This document shows, piece by piece, positions 9,424 through 44,074 of a DNA stretch of 64,000 nucleotides. How positions within the stretch are numbered: position 1 is the stretch's first letter; the number at the start of each line of letters is the position of its first letter. The notes beneath the pieces were generated by a model. That model had not been told where the DNA came from. It searched no databases and saw only the letters and a program-made list of their open reading frames with translations. This DNA comes from an uncultured Acidobacteriota bacterium (lineage in GTDB: Bacteria > Acidobacteriota > Vicinamibacteria > Vicinamibacterales > UBA2999): NCBI GenBank assembly GCA_963815285.1, contig CAWFGB010000012.1, positions 194,777-258,776 on the forward strand, given 5' to 3'. The position numbers and the translations under genes were made by a program.

Positions 9424-10326
9424 TTGCAGGAAGCGCTTGGCAATCAAGGCTACGTGGCGGAGCGCGGGCTCGCCGTCTCGATCTTCCTGGCGCTGCAGCT
9501 GAAGCGTCCGCTCTTCCTCGAGGGCGAAGCTGGCGTCGGCAAGACGGAGCTGGCCAAAGTCCTTGCCGCCACCCTCGGGACGACTTTGATCCGGCTGCAG
9601 TGCTACGAGGGTCTGGACATCACGCACGCGGTGTACGAGTGGAACTACCCGCGCCAGATCCTCGAGATTCGACTGCTCGAAGCCTCGCTGCGTGATGTGG
9701 CCGATGGTGACGACGTCCGACACCGGATCACTCGTGACCTTTTCTCCGAAGCGTTTCTAATCAAGCGGCCGCTGCTGAGGGCCATCGAAGCCTCGAACGA
9801 GCACCCACCGGTCTTGCTCATCGACGAGGTCGATCGCGCAGATGAGGAGTTCGAAGGCTATCTGCTGGAGCTGCTGTCGGACTTCCAGATCACCATTCCG
9901 GAGATCGGGACCATTCGCGCAACGAACCCGCCGATTGTGGTGATCACGTCGAATCGAACGCGAGAGGTGCACGACGCACTCAAACGCCGGTGCGTGTACG
10001 CCTGGATCGACTATCCCGATTTCGCGAAGGAACGACGCATCGTGGCCGCCAAGCTGCCCGGTGTGCCGGCGCAGCTGGCCGAGCAGGTGACGGCATTCGT
10101 GCAGGAACTGCGCACGACCGACTTGTACAAGGCCGCCGGCGTCTCGGAGACCCTGGATTGGGCCGCCGCGCTCGTCGCGCTCAACCACGCGACACTCGAT
10201 GCCGACACCATCGACCAGACGCTTGGCGTGCTGCTCAAGAATCAGGAAGATCTCGAGGCCGTGCGTGGCGAGCGCACGCGCATGCTGTTGGCGCGCGCGC
10301 TGGACCGAGGGACCAAACAAGCCTAG
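9424..10326 (+). CDS. coxD: MoxR-family AAA+ ATPase (CoxD-like)
   Basis: Walker A GEAGVGKT and Walker B LLIDEVDRA, with MoxR-like length. The TTG start comes from the track. A slightly more upstream start (for example CTG 9388) cannot be excluded. Confidence 0.85.
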   Translation: MQEALGNQGYVAERGLAVSIFLALQLKRPLFLEGEAGVGKTELAKVLAATLGTTLIRLQCYEGLDITHAVYEWNYPRQILEIRLLEASLRDVADGDDVRHRITRDLFSEAFLIKRPLLRAIEASNEHPPVLLIDEVDRADEEFEGYLLELLSDFQITIPEIGTIRATNPPIVVITSNRTREVHDALKRRCVYAWIDYPDFAKERRIVAAKLPGVPAQLAEQVTAFVQELRTTDLYKAAGVSETLDWAAALVALNHATLDADTIDQTLGVLLKNQEDLEAVRGERTRMLLARALDRGTKQA

Positions 10327-10335
10327 AGCAACCAC

Positions 10336-11463
10336 ATGGTTTCGCACCCGCTCGTGGCCAACCTCCTGCTGTTCGGCCGGCTGCTGCGACGCGCCGGCCT
10401 CCCTGTGCATCACAGCCGGCTGCTCGATGCGGTGCGCGCGATCGACTGGGTTGGCGTCCGCCGGCGTGACGATGTGCGCGCCACGCTGCTGGCGCTGCTC
10501 GTGCACCGTCACGAGGACATCGACCGCTTCGATGCGGCCTTCACGCTGTTCTTCCGCGATCACGCCCGCGCGGCGTCCGAGCTGGCGCTCTTCTCGCTTG
10601 GTGAACGCCCGCGCGTCGTCTTCCGGCCGGTGCCGGGCGTCGTCTCGCACGTCGAGATCGAGGACCTAACCTCCGACGCCTCCCAGCCGACGGAACGAGC
10701 TGTGGGTGCCTACAGCGCCGCCGGAGTGTCTCGGACCAAGGATTTCGCCGACTTCTCGCCCGCGGAGATGGAGGACGCCCGTCGACTACTGGCCGAGCTC
10801 CCGTGGCGTCTCGGTATGCGCCGCACGCGACGGTGGGACCAAAATGATGGCACCTCTGTCAACCTCCGCCCGATCCTCCGGAGAGCGATGTCGCAAGGCG
10901 AGATCCTCGAGTTGGATTTTCGACGGCGGCGAACCGCGCCTCGCCCTATCGTCTTCGTCGGCGACGTCAGTGGCTCGATGGAGCGCTACAGCCGGGTGCT
11001 GATGCATTTCGTCTACGGGCTGGCCCGGCACGTTCGCCACGTTGAAAGCTTTGTCTTTGCGACTACGCTGACCAGAATCACGCACCGCGTGGTCCGGCCC
11101 GGCGCAGAACGGCAGCTCACCGCGGTTATCCGCAGCGTCAGCGATTGGGGCGGTGGCACACGCATCGGCGAATCGCTGCGAGTGTTCAACACGCGCTGGG
11201 CCCGCCGGGTCATGCGGCATGGACCAGTAGTCGTCCTCGTCTCCGACGGGTGGGACCGCGGCGAACCGACCGTTCTGCGACGGGAGCTGGCCCGGCTGCG
11301 CCGCGGATGCCACCGCCTGATGTGGCTGAACCCGCTGCTGGGCGACGCCCAATACGAGCCGCTCACGCGCGGCATGCAGGCCGCGCTACCTTACGTCGAC
11401 GACTTCCTTCCCGCCCACAACATCGCGAGCCTGGAGCAACTGGCAGAACGGCTGAACTCATGA
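10336..11463 (+). CDS. coxE: VWA-domain protein, CoxE-like
   Basis: MIDAS-type motif VFVGDVSGSM, then ...WGGGTRIGESL... and ...VVLVSDGWDRGEP...WLNPLLG, typical of VWA_CoxE proteins. It lies directly after the MoxR ATPase. Confidence 0.85.
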   Translation: MVSHPLVANLLLFGRLLRRAGLPVHHSRLLDAVRAIDWVGVRRRDDVRATLLALLVHRHEDIDRFDAAFTLFFRDHARAASELALFSLGERPRVVFRPVPGVVSHVEIEDLTSDASQPTERAVGAYSAAGVSRTKDFADFSPAEMEDARRLLAELPWRLGMRRTRRWDQNDGTSVNLRPILRRAMSQGEILELDFRRRRTAPRPIVFVGDVSGSMERYSRVLMHFVYGLARHVRHVESFVFATTLTRITHRVVRPGAERQLTAVIRSVSDWGGGTRIGESLRVFNTRWARRVMRHGPVVVLVSDGWDRGEPTVLRRELARLRRGCHRLMWLNPLLGDAQYEPLTRGMQAALPYVDDFLPAHNIASLEQLAERLNS

Positions 11464-28013: not shown

Positions 28014-28108
28014 CCAGGCAACGAATGAACATGCAGGGCAATGAGTCGCCAACCTGAGTGCTTCGTGCGCAGCAGCCAGGAGCGGCAAACCAGATCCATA
28101 CTGCAGCC

Positions 28109-29221
28109 ATGCCCACGGGCTTCGTCCCCTCATCCGAGAACCGCCCGCTCAACCTGTTCGCCGAGAGCGATTTCGCCGAGCAGCGCGCCTTCTTTGAAGC
28201 TCGTCCATGGCTCCAGCCAACGCCATTGCATCGCTGTCCGGCGCTCGCCGAACGGCTCGGCATCGGCCATCTGCTGGCAAAAGACGAAACGGCGCGCTTC
28301 GGGCTGAACGCCTTCAAGGCCGCCGGCGCGATGTTCGCGATTGCGACCCTGCGCGACCACGGCCGGCTTCGCGCGGGTGACACGCTGGTGTGCGCCAGCG
28401 AAGGCAACCACGGCCGTGCCGTCGCCAACGCGGCGCGCGAGGCCGGGTGCGCGGCGAAGGTCTACATGTCCAACCGAGTCGCGCCAGAGCGAGCGCAGGC
28501 CATTCGCAATGAGAGCGCGGAGGTGGAGCTTGTGGATGGCTCGTACGACGAGGCGGTGCGCGTCATGGCCGCTGCCGCCCAGGCCCACGGTTGGACCGTG
28601 ATCTCGGATACCTCGTGGCCCGGATACAGCGAGATCCCACGCCTCATCATGCTCGGCTACACGCGTATTCTCGACGAGGTCGCAATGCAGATGAGCGAGC
28701 CTCAGCCCCGCCCCACCGTCATCTTTGTTCCGGCAGGTGTCGGCGGGCTGCTGGCGGCCGCGGCGTGCTGGGCCGATTGGCGCTATGGATCGACACGACC
28801 TCGCGTGGTGGCCGTCGAACCGGTGAGTGCCGCCTGCGTGCAAACGTCAATGCGTGCTGGTCACCCGCGCAACCTGGCCGGCCCGTTCGACACCGTCATG
28901 GGCGGGCTGCGCTGTGGCGTCATGTCGCCATCAGTGTTTCCAGCCGTCCAGACGCTGGTCGATGCTTGTGTCGGTATCGAAGACGAGTATGCGTTCGAGG
29001 CTATGCGTCTGCTGGCCCGCCCGGCGTCGCCGGACCCGCCCATCGCCTGCGGAGCTTCCGGCGCTGCGGCCCTCGGAGGTCTGATCGCCGTCCTCCAGGA
29101 ACCCGCGCTCGGCAATGTACGCGACCACCTCCGCCTTGGGCCAGAGAGTTGCGCGGTGGTACTGGTGACGGAGGGAGTGACGGAGCCCGCCCTCTACAAT
29201 GAAGTGGTGGCTCGTGCCTGA
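28109..29221 (+). CDS. dpaL: Diaminopropionate ammonia-lyase-like PLP enzyme
   Basis: KDETARFGLNAFKAAGA closely parallels E. coli YgeX KDESKRFGLNAFKMLGG, the PLP-lysine region. About 370 aa from the ATG at 28109. Confidence 0.7.
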   Translation: MPTGFVPSSENRPLNLFAESDFAEQRAFFEARPWLQPTPLHRCPALAERLGIGHLLAKDETARFGLNAFKAAGAMFAIATLRDHGRLRAGDTLVCASEGNHGRAVANAAREAGCAAKVYMSNRVAPERAQAIRNESAEVELVDGSYDEAVRVMAAAAQAHGWTVISDTSWPGYSEIPRLIMLGYTRILDEVAMQMSEPQPRPTVIFVPAGVGGLLAAAACWADWRYGSTRPRVVAVEPVSAACVQTSMRAGHPRNLAGPFDTVMGGLRCGVMSPSVFPAVQTLVDACVGIEDEYAFEAMRLLARPASPDPPIACGASGAAALGGLIAVLQEPALGNVRDHLRLGPESCAVVLVTEGVTEPALYNEVVARA

Positions 29222-29290
29222 CACCGTGCGTCCCAGAAACGGACACATGGGGCCAGTTTTGGCGGAACCTTCTGACGCTAACTCTCGTTT

Positions 29291-29303
29291 TATCAATATG
29301 TTG
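29291..29303 (+). promoter_or_regulatory. Candidate IHF binding site
   Basis: TATCAATATGTTG fits every specified position of the IHF consensus WATCAANNNNTTR. It sits in an AT-rich patch 17 nt upstream of the sigma54 -24 element. Confidence 0.4.
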
Positions 29304-29318
29304 AATGGGCCTGGCTGG

Positions 29319-29335
29319 CTGGCACAGCCTTTGGA
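29319..29335 (+). promoter_or_regulatory. Candidate sigma54 (-24/-12) promoter for the macA-like efflux operon
   Basis: CTGGCAC-AGCCT-TTGGA versus the consensus CTGGCAC-N5-TTGCA. The -24 element is 7/7, the -12 element 4/5, and the spacing is correct. It lies about 100 nt upstream of the ATG at 29437. A sigma54 activator gene lies 5 kb downstream. Confidence 0.55.
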
Positions 29336-29399
29336 CGACTTTTCTGATGGGCCGACATCCAATCAGCCTCAATTCCCCGTCTAAGGTTCCATGTTCCCA

Positions 29400-29429
29400 G
29401 GAACCTTGGAACTTTGGAACCTTGGAACT
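29400..29429. repeat. Short tandem repeat GGAACYTT (8 bp, about 4 copies) in the efflux-operon leader
   Basis: GGAACCTT GGAACTTT GGAACCTT GGAACT, ending 7 nt before the ATG. The first unit pairs with AAGGTTCC (29383-29390) to form an 8-bp hairpin. Confidence 0.85.
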
Positions 29430-29436
29430 ATAAGCA

Positions 29437-30699
29437 ATGGATATTCAGCGACCGGCATCCGTGGCGCGGCAGAAGAAAATGCGCCGAATCATGTTCGCCG
29501 TGGTCGGCGTTCTCGTCATCGGCGTCGTCTCGGTCGTCCTCGCCCGGCTCAAGCCGGCGGCGCCCACGGTGGAGCAAGCCACGGTCTGGGTGGACAGCGT
29601 CAAGCGTGGCGACATGAACCGCAACGTGCGCGGTCTGGGCACGCTGATGCCCCTCGACGAAGCGCGGCGTCTGATTCCGGCGGTCACCCAGGGGCGCGTC
29701 GAGCGCATTTTGATCCGCCCTGGTGTCGAGGTCACGCCTGATACGGTGATCCTGGAACTGAGCGAGCCCACCGTGCAGCAGGCACTCGCCGACGCCGAGC
29801 AGCAAATGCGCGGCGCCGAAGCGGACTACACCAGCCTGGAGGCGCGGCTCGAAAGCGATCGACTGACTCAGCGCTCAGCCGCGGCGGCCATCTCGGCGGA
29901 TTATCGCGCGGCGCAACTGCAGAAGGAGGTCGACGAAAACCTCGCGAAAGACGGCCTTGTCTCGGCGCTCCAGCTCAAGACCTCGACGGTGCGCGCCGAA
30001 TCGCTCGCTGAGCGTAATACCATCGCCCTGGAGAACATCAAGATCGCGGAGAACAACGTCAAGGCACAGCTGATGGCGCAGCAGGCGCGTGTCGATCAGC
30101 TGCGTTCGCAGGTCATCCTGCGCCGCCAGCAGGTCGAACAGCTCCGCGTGCGGGCCGGGATGAACGGCGTACTCGAACAGGTTGCGGTCAACGTTGGACA
30201 GCAGGTCTCGCCTGGCGCCAATCTCGCCCGCGTCGCCGACCCGACGCGCCTCAAGGCCGAACTGCGGATTGCAGAAACGCAAGCGCGGGATCTGACCATC
30301 GGGCAGAAGGCGGAGATTGACACGCGCAACGGCATCATCCAGGGCCGTGTGATGCGGATTGACCCGGCCGCCCAACAGGGCACCGTCACCGTAGACGTCG
30401 AACTCCTGGGAGAATTGCCGCGCGGCGCCCGTCCTGACCTGAGCGTCGACGGGACGATCGAACTCGAGCGGCTCACCAACGTCTTGTATGTAGGACGCCC
30501 CGCGTTTGGCCAGGAGCAGAGTTCGGTCGGGCTCTTCAAGGTGGACGCCACCACCGGCGAAGCCGAGCGGGTCACGGTGCAGCTCGGTCGCAGTGCGGTC
30601 AACACCATCGAGGTGATCAAGGGGTTGTCGGAAGGCGATCGCGTAGTGCTGTCGGACATGTCAGCCTGGGATCAGTTCGAACGAATTCGTTTGCGATAA
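29437..30699 (+). CDS. Efflux transporter periplasmic adaptor subunit (HlyD/MacA family)
   Basis: N-terminal TM anchor, a long coiled-coil region (...AEADYTSLEARLESDRL...QARVDQLRSQV...) and beta-barrel/lipoyl-like flanks. It lies directly upstream of MacB-type ABC genes. Confidence 0.85.
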   Translation: MDIQRPASVARQKKMRRIMFAVVGVLVIGVVSVVLARLKPAAPTVEQATVWVDSVKRGDMNRNVRGLGTLMPLDEARRLIPAVTQGRVERILIRPGVEVTPDTVILELSEPTVQQALADAEQQMRGAEADYTSLEARLESDRLTQRSAAAAISADYRAAQLQKEVDENLAKDGLVSALQLKTSTVRAESLAERNTIALENIKIAENNVKAQLMAQQARVDQLRSQVILRRQQVEQLRVRAGMNGVLEQVAVNVGQQVSPGANLARVADPTRLKAELRIAETQARDLTIGQKAEIDTRNGIIQGRVMRIDPAAQQGTVTVDVELLGELPRGARPDLSVDGTIELERLTNVLYVGRPAFGQEQSSVGLFKVDATTGEAERVTVQLGRSAVNTIEVIKGLSEGDRVVLSDMSAWDQFERIRLR

Positions 30700-30709
30700 A
30701 GGAGTCACG

Positions 30710-31411
30710 ATGAACGCTTCAGCGCCGCCGCTCATTCGGCTTGACGGCATCAAGAAGGTTTTCTACACGGACGAAGTAGAGACCCACGCCCTCGCGGGCA
30801 TCCATCTCGAGATCCAGCAGGGTGAATATGTCGCCATCGCAGGGCCGTCAGGCTGCGGCAAGTCCACGCTGCTGGCTATTTTGGGGCTGCTCGATACGCC
30901 GACTGAAGGCGCTTACACGCTGAACGGCAACCAGGTGGCCAATCTGTCGCTGTCCGAGCGCGCTCGGGTCCGCAACCGCGAGATCGGCTTCATCTTCCAG
31001 AGCTTCAACCTGATCGGCGACCTGACGGTCTTCGAGAATGTCGAGCTCCCGCTCATCTACCGGGGTATGAAGTCGGCCGAGCGGCGCGAACGCGCCAACG
31101 CCGCGCTCGAGCGCGTCGGCATGGCGCATCGCTCCAAGCACCTGCCTTCGCAGCTTTCCGGCGGTCAGCAGCAGCGCGTCGCCGTCGCGCGCGCCGTCGG
31201 CGGCCAGCCGTCGATCCTGCTGGCGGACGAGCCGACCGGTAACCTCGACTCCAAGAACGGCGAAGCGGTGATGGACCTGCTGCGCGAACTGCATCGCGGC
31301 GGCGCCACCATCTGCATGGTCACACATGACCCACGGTATGCAGCGCACGCCGACCGTAGCGTGCACCTCTTCGACGGCCGCATTGTCGAAGAAAGCGTTG
31401 CAGCGATCTAG
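30710..31411 (+). CDS. ABC transporter ATP-binding protein (MacB/LolD-type NBD)
   Basis: Walker A GPSGCGKST, signature LSGGQQQRVAVARA, Walker [13 protein letters not shown]. Confidence 0.9.
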   Translation: MNASAPPLIRLDGIKKVFYTDEVETHALAGIHLEIQQGEYVAIAGPSGCGKSTLLAILGLLDTPTEGAYTLNGNQVANLSLSERARVRNREIGFIFQSFNLIGDLTVFENVELPLIYRGMKSAERRERANAALERVGMAHRSKHLPSQLSGGQQQRVAVARAVGGQPSILLADEPTGNLDSKNGEAVMDLLRELHRGGATICMVTHDPRYAAHADRSVHLFDGRIVEESVAAI

Positions 31412-33829: not shown

Positions 33830-33972
33830 TCAGAACTCTGTCACCGACCTGGTTCGAAAAAAGGTCATGTTCGGAGAACCCTGTCGAACAACTCTGTGAA
33901 CCGCGTGGACGGAACGCCGTGGGGAACCCCCTCTGCGAACCTAGTGATCCCCGCTACAATTCGTCTATCACC

Positions 33973-34638
33973 ATGATCAAGTTACGAAGCATCGAGAAGA
34001 GTTACCGCCACGGATTGTCCCAGACCTTCGTGCTGCGCCGCATCAACGTGGACCTTCAGCAGGGCGAGTTCGTGTCGATCATGGGTCCCTCGGGCGCAGG
34101 CAAGAGCACCCTCCTCCACATCATGGGCATGCACGACAGCGCGTGGACCGGGGAGTACTGGTTGTTCGACGAGCCGGTGCACCAGCTCTCAGCGAAGGAT
34201 CGCATGCGGCTGCAGAAGCAGCACGTCGGCTTCGTGTTCCAGAGCTATCACTTGCTCGACAATCTGACCGTCTACGAGAACATCGATCTGCCGCTGTCGT
34301 ACCGCGACGTGAAGAAGTCGGAGCGCCAGGGCATGGTGGCCGACATCCTCGACCGCTTCAACATCGTCGGCAAGAAGGACCTCTACCCTAATCAGCTGTC
34401 GGGTGGACAGCAGCAGCTCGTCGCCATCGCGCGCGCCGTGGTGGCCAAGCCTAACCTGATCCTCGCCGATGAGCCGACCGGAAACCTTCATTCGGATCAG
34501 GGCCGCGAAATCATGGAATTGTTCAAGCGCCTGAACGATGCTGGCACTACGATCATTCAGGTGACTCACTCCGAGGTAAACGCGGCGTACGGGCAGCGCA
34601 TCATCAAGCTCAAGGATGGGTGGGTGGTCGAAGAATAG
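33973..34638 (+). CDS. Second MacB/LolD-type ABC ATP-binding protein, no adjacent permease of its own
   Basis: Walker [10 protein letters not shown], signature [14 protein letters not shown], Walker [12 protein letters not shown]. The start was set to the ATG at 33973 ([11 protein letters not shown]). The stop is 2 nt before the next gene's ATG. Confidence 0.85.
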
Positions 34639-34640
34639 CC

Positions 34641-36035
<1,395 letters not shown>

Positions 36036-36041
36036 CCCACC

Positions 36042-37358
36042 GTGCGGCGACTGACCCACGACACACAGGTATTTTTGCTGGCGCTGGCGGCCGGGCTGCC
36101 CGGCGCCGCGACGTCGATGATCATCTTGTGGACCGGCGACTACACGCCGAAGGCCCAGTGGACGCTGACTGTGCTCATCGTCGGGTGCCTGCTCGGATTT
36201 GCCGCGTCGATCCGCAGCCGGGTCGTGCTGCCGCTGCAGACGGTCGCCAACCTGCTGGCGGCCATGCGGGAGGACGACTTCTCCATTCGCGGACGAACCG
36301 CGGATCCGGAGGATCCGCTCGGCGCCGTGCTCATCGAGATCAACGAACTGGCCGCGACGTTACACGAGCAGCGCCTGGGCGCCGTCGAGGCCACGGCGCT
36401 GCTGCGCACGGTGATGGAGCAGGTCGACGTCGCGTTGTTTGCCTTCGATCCGGGCGAGCGGCTGCGCATCGTGAACCGCACCGGCGAGCGGTTGATCGGC
36501 CGCAGCATGGAACAACTCCTCGGGCGCACGGCGGAGGAACTCAACGTCACCGACTGGTTCGGCGATGTCCCGCGTGTGGTCGATCTGTCTCTGCCCGGCG
36601 GCAACGTGGGACGCTGGGAAGTGCGCCGGACCACCTTCCGGCTCGGCGGGCTCCCTCACGATCTGCTCGTGCTGTCCGATGTCAGCCGTCCGCTGCGCGA
36701 GCAGGAACGCCAGGCGTGGCAGCGGTTGATTCGTGTCATCGGACACGAGCTTGGCAATTCGCTTGGCCCGATCAAGTCCATTGCCGGCAGCCTCGAGACG
36801 CTGCTGCAGCGCAATCCGCCTCCCGAAGATTGGCGTGACGACATGACGCGCGGCCTGCAAGTCATTGCGTCGCGCAGCGAATCGCTCAGTCGCTTTACCG
36901 CCGCGTACGCGAGGCTCGCACGCTTGCCGGCGCCCAAGCTCGCCCCCGTGGTGCTCAAGCCGCTGCTCGTCAAGATTGCCGATCTCGAAAGCCGCGTGCC
37001 GGTAGCGGTGCGCCCGGGCCCTGACCTCACCGTGGAGGTCGATACCGATCAGATCGAGCAGCTGTTGATCAACCTGATTCGCAACGCCGCCGACGCGTGT
37101 CTCGAAGTGGGCGGCGGGTCGGTCACGATCGGCTGGCGTCGCACACGTCATGGCACCGACATCTGGGTAGACGATGAGGGGCCGGGCTTGTCGAACACCA
37201 CCAACCTGTTCGTGCCCTTCTTCACGACCAAGCCAGGCGGGTCGGGCATCGGCTTGGTGCTCTGCCGGCAGATTGCTGAAGCGCACGACGGATCGCTGAA
37301 GCTCGAAAACAAGCCCGAAGGACGTGGCGCGCGCGCCACACTGACGCTTCCGCTGTAG
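36042..37358 (+). CDS. Sensor histidine kinase (2 TM with about 9-residue outer loop, HAMP, PAS, HisKA, HATPase_c)
   Basis: TM1 VFLLALAAGLPGAATSMIILW, loop TGDYTPKAQ, TM2 WTLTVLIVGCLLGFAASI. H-box VIGHELGNSLGPI, and the ATPase G-boxes DDEGPGL and GGSGIGL. GTG start 6 nt after the regulator's stop. Confidence 0.85.
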   Translation: MRRLTHDTQVFLLALAAGLPGAATSMIILWTGDYTPKAQWTLTVLIVGCLLGFAASIRSRVVLPLQTVANLLAAMREDDFSIRGRTADPEDPLGAVLIEINELAATLHEQRLGAVEATALLRTVMEQVDVALFAFDPGERLRIVNRTGERLIGRSMEQLLGRTAEELNVTDWFGDVPRVVDLSLPGGNVGRWEVRRTTFRLGGLPHDLLVLSDVSRPLREQERQAWQRLIRVIGHELGNSLGPIKSIAGSLETLLQRNPPPEDWRDDMTRGLQVIASRSESLSRFTAAYARLARLPAPKLAPVVLKPLLVKIADLESRVPVAVRPGPDLTVEVDTDQIEQLLINLIRNAADACLEVGGGSVTIGWRRTRHGTDIWVDDEGPGLSNTTNLFVPFFTTKPGGSGIGLVLCRQIAEAHDGSLKLENKPEGRGARATLTLPL

Positions 37359-43804: not shown

Positions 43805-44074
43805 ATGATCAAGGTCGACATCGTCAACGAAGTCTCGCGGGTCGCGGAGATCACCAAAGTCAAGGCCGAGCTGGCCGTGGACGCGGTATTCGAAGCCATG
43901 CGGCATTCGATGCAACGTGGCGAACGTATTGAGCTGCGGGGCTTTGGCGTTTTTCAGGTGAAGCCGCGCAAGCGTGGCATCGGCCGAAATCCTCGCACCG
44001 GCAAGGAAGTTCGTATTCCTCCCGGACGAACGATCCGTTTCAAGCCCGGGAAAGAGCTCCAGAACATCGGATAA
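43805..44074 (+). CDS. Integration host factor / HU-family DNA-binding protein
   Basis: 89 aa. ...IELRGFGVFQVKPRKRGIGRNPRTGKEVRIPPGRTIRFKPGKEL is the IHF/HU beta-arm pattern. Confidence 0.85.
   Translation: MIKVDIVNEVSRVAEITKVKAELAVDAVFEAMRHSMQRGERIELRGFGVFQVKPRKRGIGRNPRTGKEVRIPPGRTIRFKPGKELQNIG

Follow-up and report, generated by a model that had tools for sequence, protein, structure and literature searches.

A predicted enhancer-dependent sigma-54 control region with a putative DNA-bending site upstream of a MacB/ADOP-type export operon in Vicinamibacterales

Results

We analysed a 64,000-nucleotide stretch of DNA (hereafter, the window) from an uncultured Acidobacteriota bacterium of the order Vicinamibacterales (contig CAWFGB010000012.1 of assembly GCA_963815285.1, positions 194,777 to 258,776), in which motif matches had suggested an IHF site and a sigma-54 promoter upstream of an efflux operon (the original prediction). 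Both motifs lie within the 215 nt that separate a diaminopropionate ammonia-lyase-like gene (28058-29221) from the gene for a membrane fusion protein (ATG at 29437), which is followed by genes for an ABC ATPase (ABC1), an ADOP-family permease, a second ABC ATPase (ABC2), an NtrC-family activator, and a histidine kinase (Table 1). The sequences TATCAATATGTTG and CTGGCAC-AGCCT-TTGGA are present on the plus strand as claimed, with the local order ...CTCGTT-TTATCAATATGTTG-AATGGGCCTGGCTGG-CTGGCACAGCCTTTGGA.... The former matches the IHF consensus WATCAANNNNTTR exactly, so that every defined position is indeed satisfied. The latter agrees with the sigma-54 consensus at all but one position and at the correct spacing, as had been stated, but the mismatch is not a minor one, because it falls on the C of the -12 GC dinucleotide. 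Two further details had to be corrected. The IHF-like core lies 15 nt from CTGGCAC (16 nt from TGGCAC) rather than 17 nt, and it does not occupy the only AT-rich patch of the region, since the G+C content is 48-55% throughout the gap, as opposed to 63-76% for the genes on either side, and reaches its minimum at 29350-29449. Neither a sigma-70-like promoter nor an intrinsic terminator was found in 28900-29700, and an Rfam scan of 29100-29600 (E ≤ 10) returned chance-level matches only.

Table 1. Coordinates of the export operon, its upstream region, and the bending-protein gene in the window
Feature	Position	Strand	Details
Candidate upstream activating sequence GTCCCAGAAACGGACAC	29230-29246	+	Imperfect dyad GTCC-N7-GGAC, centre at about -108
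Consensus block gTCCCa....CG.ACAC	29230-29246
GGAAC(CTT) block	29264-29271	+	-82 to -75; GGAAC at least 90% conserved
Consensus block GGAAC.T	29264-29270
Consensus block c.cTAAcTCTCGTT	29276-29289
Conserved block CTAACTCTCGTT	29278-29289	+	-68 to -57, directly 5′ of the IHF-like core
IHF-consensus match TATCAATATGTTG	29291-29303	+	-55 to -43; exact WATCAANNNNTTR match
Consensus block tCA...tGTTG	29293-29303
Sigma-54-type promoter CTGGCAC-AGCCT-TTGGA	29319-29335	+	GG at -25/-24 (29321-29322); TG at -14/-13 (29332-29333); G for C at -12 (29334)
Consensus block TGGCAC..c.ctTGa	29320-29334
Predicted transcription start	29346	+	26 nt past the T of TGGCAC, from standard -24/-12 geometry
Conserved 33-nt leader module CCG ACA TCC ... 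CCC GTC TAA	29352-29384	+	Family form NTG-NCA-TCN-N18-C-GTC-TAA
Leader hairpin of 8-nt repeats	29380-29429	+	Two GTTCC units, then 3.6 units of GGAACCTT; ends 8 nt before the start codon
HlyD/MacA-like membrane fusion adaptor, first operon gene	29437-30699	+	Pfam HlyD_D23, HlyD_3; NCBIfam RND_mfp; 80 orthologous loci
MacB/LolD-type ABC ATPase (ABC1)	30710-31411	+	Pfam ABC_tran; 94-98% identical in orthologues
ADOP-family duplicated MacB_PCD/FtsX permease, 803 aa	31418-33829	+	TIGR03434, 911 bits (cutoff 622); Pfam MacB_PCD x2, FtsX x2
Second ABC ATPase (ABC2)	33919-34638	+	Pfam ABC_tran; overlaps the start of the activator gene
NtrC-family response regulator/sigma-54 activator	34620-36035	+	Receiver, AAA+, Fis-type helix-turn-helix; Sigma54_activat 3e-62, Response_reg, HTH_8
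Histidine kinase	36042-37358	+	Pfam HATPase_c, weak PAS match
IHF/HU-family DNA-bending protein, 89 aa	43805-44074	+	Pfam Bac_DNA_binding 7e-27; candidate binder of 29278-29303

Each motif occurs only once in the window. For TGGCAC-N5-TTGS, 0.32 copies per window were expected and at least one copy appeared in 26 of 100 shuffles, whereas for WATCAANNNNTTR the corresponding values were 0.20 and 19 of 100; with one mismatch allowed, 1.86 copies of the full sigma-54 consensus were expected. Thus, neither motif is significant alone, and the window by itself is no proof of function. The chance that both would share a strand and an intergenic gap is estimated at approximately 1e-5 over the gaps of the window, and in a looser scan this was the only 9/9 match to the -24/-12 core. 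The motifs are considered significant because of their co-occurrence in one gap, the sole 9/9 core match and, above all, their conservation in orthologues.

To define this conservation, one genome per species was scanned, which yielded 80 loci encoding fusion-protein relatives; almost all of these loci belong to metagenome-assembled genomes of Vicinamibacterales or other Acidobacteriota. The 230 nt located 5′ of the first gene were compared across the loci. When five close relatives identified through homologues of the activator were added, the set comprised 52 promoters from Vicinamibacterales genomes and close-relative contigs. A complete ordered module was present in 47 of these, with the block order GTCCCA-N4-CGRACAC, GGAAC, CTAACTCTCGTT, yCAR-N3-GTTG, and TGGCAC-N5-(T/G)TG. 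Conservation was 70-99% inside the blocks and 30-60% between them, and within approximately 1 Mb of related DNA the blocks were essentially confined to these promoter regions. The original prediction had staked itself on the presence of the motifs upstream of orthologous operons, where they were thus found at fixed spacing.

The distances between the blocks were rigid. The dyad (TCCC) was located 89 nt from TGGCA in 33 promoters and 88-91 nt in another 13; GGAAC was located 56 nt from TGGCA in 35 of the 47; and GTTG lay at 20 nt in 35 promoters, at 19-22 nt in 11, and at 30 nt in one. The sole length outlier, locus L084 (~1560-1600), has a 10-bp insertion, equal to one helical turn, between GTTG and TGGCAT, which widens the interval from 16 to 26 nt.

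A metagenome scan with the pattern TCTCGTT-N4-CA-N4-GTTG-N16-TGGCA gave 52 matches, approximately 44 of which also had the dyad at the right distance. Each of these modules precedes an orthologue of the fusion protein wherever the contig reaches far enough, and the scan revealed no regulon members beyond the export operon; the other eight matches, without the dyad or the -12 element, are due to chance. The ortholog and metagenome samples, together about 90 promoter sequences, partly overlap. One locus, L091 (OFHL01010258.1), is apparently chimeric: downstream of the module, the fusion-protein gene runs for ~35 codons before it gives way to unrelated ABC-/Clp-like coding sequence.

Homologous promoters also occurred in more distant relatives. 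The 12 Terriglobia loci carry TGGCAC-N5-GTGCA, that is, a canonical GG-N10-GC element, together with a TATCAATAGCTTG-type site (TATCAAT/WATCAA-type) 16 nt before TGGCAC and after an A/T-rich tract. The canonical GC was also found in L050 (TGGCGC-N5-TTGCG) and L059 (TGGCAC-N5-TTGCA), as well as in L051 and L047. A second group of Vicinamibacterales loci, consisting of paralogues (L055, L062, L075, L076, L079, and L080), differs in having its dyad, ATCCCA...GGAC, 64 nt upstream of TGGCAG-N5-TTGAG and in lacking the IHF-like site. The operon family has therefore inherited this type of promoter from its ancestor, and an IHF-like site at a fixed offset is found in two classes of the phylum.

Upstream of the two predicted motifs, the comparison revealed a dyad that had gone unmentioned in the original prediction and that lies where an enhancer would be expected. 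Its columns were 70-99% conserved in the 47 promoters, in 46 of which it stands 88-91 nt before TGGCAC, and the related DNA contained 41 copies in these promoters and two elsewhere, on the opposite strand of homologous promoter regions. The dyad is the probable binding site of the operon's own NtrC-type activator. The GGAAC block that follows probably represents a second, half-site-like activator contact; GGAAC forms the right half of a full GTCCC-N5/6-GGAAC dyad in L006, L011, and L013, and in the Terriglobia orthologues a GGAAY block adjoins the dyad, distant from the IHF-like site.

In terms of the candidate bending site, the CTAACTCTCGTT block is surpassed in conservation only by TGGCAC within the region, and its extended form TAAnTCTCGTT occurred in 37 copies in these promoters and nowhere else in the approximately 1 Mb of related DNA. 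The block and the adjoining IHF-like core make up 26 bp of uninterrupted conservation (29278-29303), and the simplest interpretation of the block is as the 5′ arm of a ~26-bp site for a bending protein; proteins of the IHF/HU family cover ~35 bp. The orthologues keep CA(A/G) and GTTG, which are the most informative positions of the Escherichia coli IHF consensus, and vary at the WAT positions and at the three bases after CAR. In the window, the core is immediately preceded by a short T run (CGTTTTA), and the Terriglobia orthologues have a long A/T tract. The core lies between the dyad (-108) and the -24 element with its phasing kept, the distance being fixed save for the single +10 variant; a fixed site between enhancer and promoter is what IHF-assisted looping would predict (PMC7057263). 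As for the protein, the product of the small gene at 43805-44074 was confirmed as a member of the IHF/HU family, scoring 80.8 bits against the NCBIfam model of IHF-beta (cutoff 115), 75.7 bits against IHF-alpha (also below the cutoff), and 61 against HU, with approximately equal PDB matches to IHF and HU.

The downstream genes form a conserved unit. The gene order fusion protein-ABC1-(permease)-ABC2-activator-kinase was kept in ~45 loci, in which the fusion protein showed 70-90% and the activator 85-96% identity, and ABC2 was always immediately upstream of the activator gene. The sigma-54 activator noted in the window is thus part of the same conserved operon, and a homologue search with it returned only orthologues (85-100% identity). 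Hydropathy analysis of the kinase indicated two N-terminal membrane helices with a loop of ~8 residues between them, as in intramembrane-sensing kinases.

Identity was uneven among the operon products: 94-98% for ABC1, 85-96% for ABC2 (most group-1 loci), 85-96% for the activator, 70-90% for the fusion protein, and 51-84% for the permease. The ADOP permease gene was missing between both ATPase genes in at least eight loci (L002, L006, L009, L010, L017, L024, L028, and L036). Short GAAC-containing repeats (GAACTCTGTC, GAACCCTGTC, and GAACAACTCTGT) occur at 33833-33915, between the permease and ABC2 genes, as well as in this gap of L001, L081, and L085, and are expanded in L081; L002 has (GTGCTCA)x7 at the corresponding place. 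The GAAC repeats may mark an internal promoter or regulator sites, and the 90-nt gap before ABC2 could be the site of a separate promoter. Directly 3′ of the kinase gene, L081 carries a DDE transposase gene (DUF772/DDE_Tnp_1; 9889-10968), where the window has a trypsin-like protease gene.

The predicted 5′ leader of the operon contains two further elements. One is a conserved 33-nt module with a spacing of exactly 24 nt between the starts of CCATC and GTCTAA in 37 of the 40 loci that could be scored. In the window and in L001-L053, its distance from the promoter varies, and it usually ends ~17-20 nt before the start codon. RNAalifold predicted no pairs in a consensus structure of this module, which could be a 10-codon upstream open reading frame (e.g., MPSFLVVITV*), a bipartite protein site, or a second promoter. 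The reading frame would account for the fixed 24-nt distance, the NTG at the start position in 36 of 45 loci, the in-frame 6-nt deletion in L034, and the synonymous-looking TCG/TCC/TCT and GTG-to-GTA changes. Against it, the start position is CTG in 16 loci and a non-start codon in nine (CCG in the window; most loci have GTG, CTG, or ATG), third-position variation is not in excess, in-frame stops occur in L018, L033, and L043, and the module is apparently one nt shorter in the outgroups L046 and L050. On balance, the evidence for a reading frame is weak and this interpretation was rejected.

The other element is a hairpin of octamer repeats. TRF detected a repeat of period 8 with 3.6 copies at 29400-29428, inverted repeats were also found, and the centroid RNA fold is a hairpin at 29380-29426. 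The hairpin was restricted to the sub-clade of the window (L001, L081, L082, L084, and L085), and its copy number varies between close relatives; in L081 (1475-1575), the array is enlarged to 5+5 units (-56.7 kcal/mol, z = -4.3). The repeat units are (c/g)GTTCCa(a/g) followed by GGAACCTT, which is identical to the enhancer-proximal block at 29264-29271, and other lineages have different leader octamers, such as CTGACAAC x4 in L029 and L043. In L055, L062, L075, L076, and L079 of the second paralogue group and in the Terriglobia loci L063-L074, TGGCA is only 30-35 nt before the ATG, which gives a predicted leader of ~5-10 nt with no obvious Shine-Dalgarno sequence. A long structured leader thus appears to be a speciality of the group to which the window belongs, and the leader elements suggest further, post-initiation control.

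Discussion

The comparison makes it highly likely that the -24/-12 element is a sigma-54 promoter that works together with the activator encoded in the operon. We also consider it likely, if with somewhat less confidence, that 29230-29335 as a whole constitutes an enhancer-dependent sigma-54 control region, with an activator site and a bending site, that drives the export operon. Within this interpretation, the sigma-54 assignment appears well supported and the IHF assignment plausible. The former is favoured because TGGCAC and TG, both at least 90% conserved in the 47 promoters, occur at the exact sigma-54 spacing (ten bases from GG to the -13 G) in every member of the family, the activator gene is linked, a dyad is centred at about -108, homologues have canonical promoters, and no alternative promoter was found.

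Several observations weigh against the sigma-54 assignment. The C at -12 is reportedly among the most conserved positions of sigma-54 promoters in the compilation of Barrios et al. (1999), yet the -12 base in the 47 orthologous promoters was A in 37, G in 7, T in 3, and C in none. The corresponding -12 tetramers were TTGA (25), GTGA (11), TTGG (7), TTGT (2), GTGT (1), and ATGA (1), and those of the metagenome set were TTGA (23), TTGG (16), TTGT (3), and TCGA (1), again never with C. The Desulfovibrio sigma-54 promoters listed in the available part of PMC4641369 all carry the -12 C. Furthermore, the sigma-54-contact (L1) loop of the activator (35330-35350, residues ~238-243) reads GAFTDA instead of GAFTGA, and VfmH of Dickeya, a GAFTDA protein, showed no detectable interaction with sigma-54 (PMC10714721). 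Neither the window nor the fetched loci yielded an rpoN gene, which carries little weight given that the window covers 64 kb of the genome; RpoN was present in 3/3 Acidobacteria genomes surveyed in 2011 (PMC3372290). Other sigma-54 promoters by which the -12 variant might be judged lineage-wide were not found in the window, and 977 kb of the loci gave 18 patternless loose matches.

The variant loop was found in all orthologous and paralogous activators read (G[AS]FTDA in 35/35, including L055 and L062). A co-variation of the loop with the -12 base was considered, with all 35 of these activators accompanied by a non-C base and the sole GAFTGA protein (L050) by TTGC. It was rejected as a general rule because the L068 regulator has GAFTDA beside TGGCAC-N5-TTGCA and because regulators of Desulfovibrio vulgaris with GAFTDA or GAYTDA have GG-N10-GC targets (PMC4641369), as exemplified by DVU2106, a GAFTDA protein to which canonical sigma-54 target promoters were assigned in the same study, where this known loop variant is listed as compatible with activation.

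Both the missing C and the variant loop would be compatible with a TGGCAC-N5-TTGG element that is not used by sigma-54, if the GAFTDA regulator instead activated a sigma-70-type polymerase, as NtrC of Rhodobacter does, or if the element were a site for some other protein. Against this, TGGCAC and TG have been kept at the exact sigma-54 spacing, distant orthologues have fully canonical GG-N10-GC promoters, and no sigma-70-like hexamers were found in the gap. The regulator also retains G-A/S-F-T, including the F and T stressed in PMC7057263, and a full Sigma54_activat domain, and GAFTDA regulators with sigma-54 targets are found elsewhere (PMC4641369); in L068, a GAFTDA regulator adjoins TGGCAC-N5-TTGCA. 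We regard this alternative as highly improbable. Another possibility concerns 29264-29289, where GGAAC-N17-CGTT could be an ECF-sigma-type promoter in tandem, with a start at ~29296, so that the "IHF site" would lie inside or overlap the initially transcribed region. Several ECF groups, among them EcfG/SigT and mycobacterial SigE/SigH, have GGAAC-N16/17-CGTT as their consensus; both GGAAC and CGTT are at least 90% conserved here, and 46 promoter regions show a spacing of exactly 17 nt between them, with one N16 and no N18. Nevertheless, conservation extends to 8 of the 17 spacer positions (c.cTAAcTCT), an unusual feature in an ECF spacer, and the block is distance-locked to both the dyad and TGGCAC, a constraint that would be unnecessary for an independent promoter. 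Elsewhere in ~1 Mb, the nine further GGAAC-N17-CGTT matches share no common flanking sequence, no ECF sigma or sigma-70-family domain was found among the window open reading frames scanned, the GGAAY of Terriglobia lies beside the activator dyad without CGTT 17 nt downstream, and the conserved CAR-N3-GTTG would be left unexplained. A tandem ECF promoter is therefore quite unlikely.

The assignment of the bending site is less firm. We slightly favour an IHF-like protein acting at 29278-29303 over other possibilities, but several features count against IHF itself. The strict consensus is found in only a few orthologues (L018, L019, L038, L043, L084, and some Terriglobia loci), CTAACTCTCGTT does not resemble the A/T-rich tract of some E. 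coli IHF sites and is unaccounted for by the E. coli consensus, and the profile scores suggest that the 89-aa protein is not assignable to IHF over HU. It is conceivable, if rather unlikely, that the sigma-54 promoter and the enhancer are real and that 29278-29303 is bound by another factor, such as an activator protomer, a repressor, or a lineage-specific architectural protein, the IHF match being coincidental. This would be compatible with the conservation of only CA(A/G) and GTTG out of the 13-nt consensus, with the small palindrome CAA-N4-TTG, which could suit a dimeric regulator, with the adjoining CTAACTCTCGTT having no counterpart in described IHF sites, and with an IHF/HU protein that could be of either subtype. 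However, the conserved positions are precisely the most informative ones of the E. coli consensus, the site stands at a fixed distance between enhancer and promoter with the sole length variant shifted by 10 bp, and a WATCAA-type site recurs at the same 16-nt offset in Terriglobia, after an A/T-rich tract.

Returning to the sigma-54 promoter, the absence of the -12 C from about 90 sequences and from two paralogous operon families of Vicinamibacterales might be a selected feature rather than tolerated decay, although we consider this doubtful. If it were selected, the sigma-54 of this order might recognise a different -12 element, or the activator and promoter family might have been adjusted, for example, so that the closed complex is locked less tightly and the bend is more strictly required.

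From the observed motifs, their conservation and spacing, and the gene content, we infer the following mechanism. The membrane kinase would sense a signal, possibly through the transporter, as is proposed because the kinase has almost no periplasmic loop, and would phosphorylate the NtrC-type regulator. The regulator would then assemble on 29230-29271, which includes the dyad (about -108) and the GGAAC block (about -80), while an IHF/HU-family protein would bind the conserved 26 bp (-68 to -43) and bend the DNA. The bend would bring the activator to the sigma-54 RNA polymerase, held in a closed complex on TGGCAC-N5-TTGG (29320-29334), and ATP hydrolysis by the activator would open the promoter, with transcription starting near 29346. 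The non-consensus -12 base should weaken polymerase binding, so that the promoter would rely on bending and precise helical phasing; this would account for the rigid spacing. Co-transcription of the activator and kinase genes would make the circuit positively autoregulated.

The same order of elements, with one or more enhancer dyads at about -100, an IHF-type site, and a -24/-12 promoter served by an AAA+ activator, is known from glnHp2 (NtrC, E. coli), nifH (NifA, Klebsiella), and Pu (XylR, TOL plasmid of Pseudomonas). In known IHF-assisted sigma-54 promoters, the core promoter is weak and activity depends strongly on the bend, and a weak core would fit the non-consensus -12 base here. In contrast to these three systems, the -12 base of the family is never C, the bending site has an extra conserved 5′ block that is not A/T-rich, the host belongs to an uncultured Acidobacteriota lineage, the product is an export system, and the promoter is a predicted one. 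An enhancer located 100-150 bp upstream and IHF-assisted looping are the textbook layout (PMC7057263 and its references Hoover 1990 and Bertoni 1998), and the term "textbook-like" used in the original prediction holds for the general architecture but not for the details, because the strict IHF match is confined to the window and a few relatives and the -12 C is missing family-wide. The architecture is thus classical, and only the -12 base, which is systematically non-canonical, stands out.

The activator shares the order of receiver, AAA+, and Fis-type helix-turn-helix domains and the adjacent kinase gene with NtrC/AtoC/ZraR-type activators, and its best NCBIfam similarities were to AtoC, ZraR, and NtrC. 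Unlike these, it scores far under the equivalog cutoffs (367 vs 714 bits for AtoC) and is thus no orthologue of a named regulator, its loop is GAFTDA, and its gene lies inside the presumed target operon, preceded by a solitary ABC ATPase gene. The kinase and transporter recall BceRS-BceAB of Firmicutes, where a two-helix kinase with a minimal outside loop is likewise encoded beside an ABC transporter with an FtsX-family permease; there, however, the regulator is of the OmpR type instead of an NtrC-type sigma-54 activator, and the permease here is of the ADOP duplicated MacB type and is accompanied by a membrane fusion protein. Transporter-dependent sensing of the Bce kind in this operon is a speculation drawn from this likeness.

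Efflux pumps driven by sigma-54 had been regarded as uncommon in described systems, but they appear less unusual than this in view of the available part of PMC12316311, in which sigma-54 control of FtsX-like/MacB-type ABC systems was predicted computationally. The systems described there likewise have a sigma-54 promoter upstream of an FtsX-family permease and a COG1136-type ATPase. The same part of that source reports the ATPase enrichment for Opitutia and names Pseudomonadota, Verrucomicrobiota, and Bacteroidota, with no mention of Acidobacteriota, and its position-specific scoring matrices, as outlined there, would be expected to down-weight a -12 element without C. Sigma-54-dependent regulators of clusters that mention efflux also include CorSR of Myxococcus xanthus (PMC3707914) and EtpR of Aromatoleum (PMC4630880); according to the available parts of these two sources, both similarly control a tolerance or catabolic cluster, but the regulators are unrelated to the one studied here and the clusters are of a different kind. 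A literature search found no papers joining Acidobacteria, sigma-54, and MacB.

Vicinamibacterales are abundant, mostly uncultured soil bacteria, in which, to our knowledge, no promoter has been mapped. The region described here provides them with a regulatory unit supported by comparison, comprising an enhancer, a bending site, a promoter, and a leader, and the MacB/ADOP-type exporter that it would control is widespread in Acidobacteriota and has no known substrate. The approximately 90 natural sigma-54 promoter variants without the -12 C represent a convenient test case for the role of this base, and they also caution that promoters of this kind may escape sigma-54 scans that rely on the consensus. 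If the specificity of sigma-54 has indeed shifted in this order, standard sigma-54 matrices would systematically miss promoters in an abundant soil lineage.

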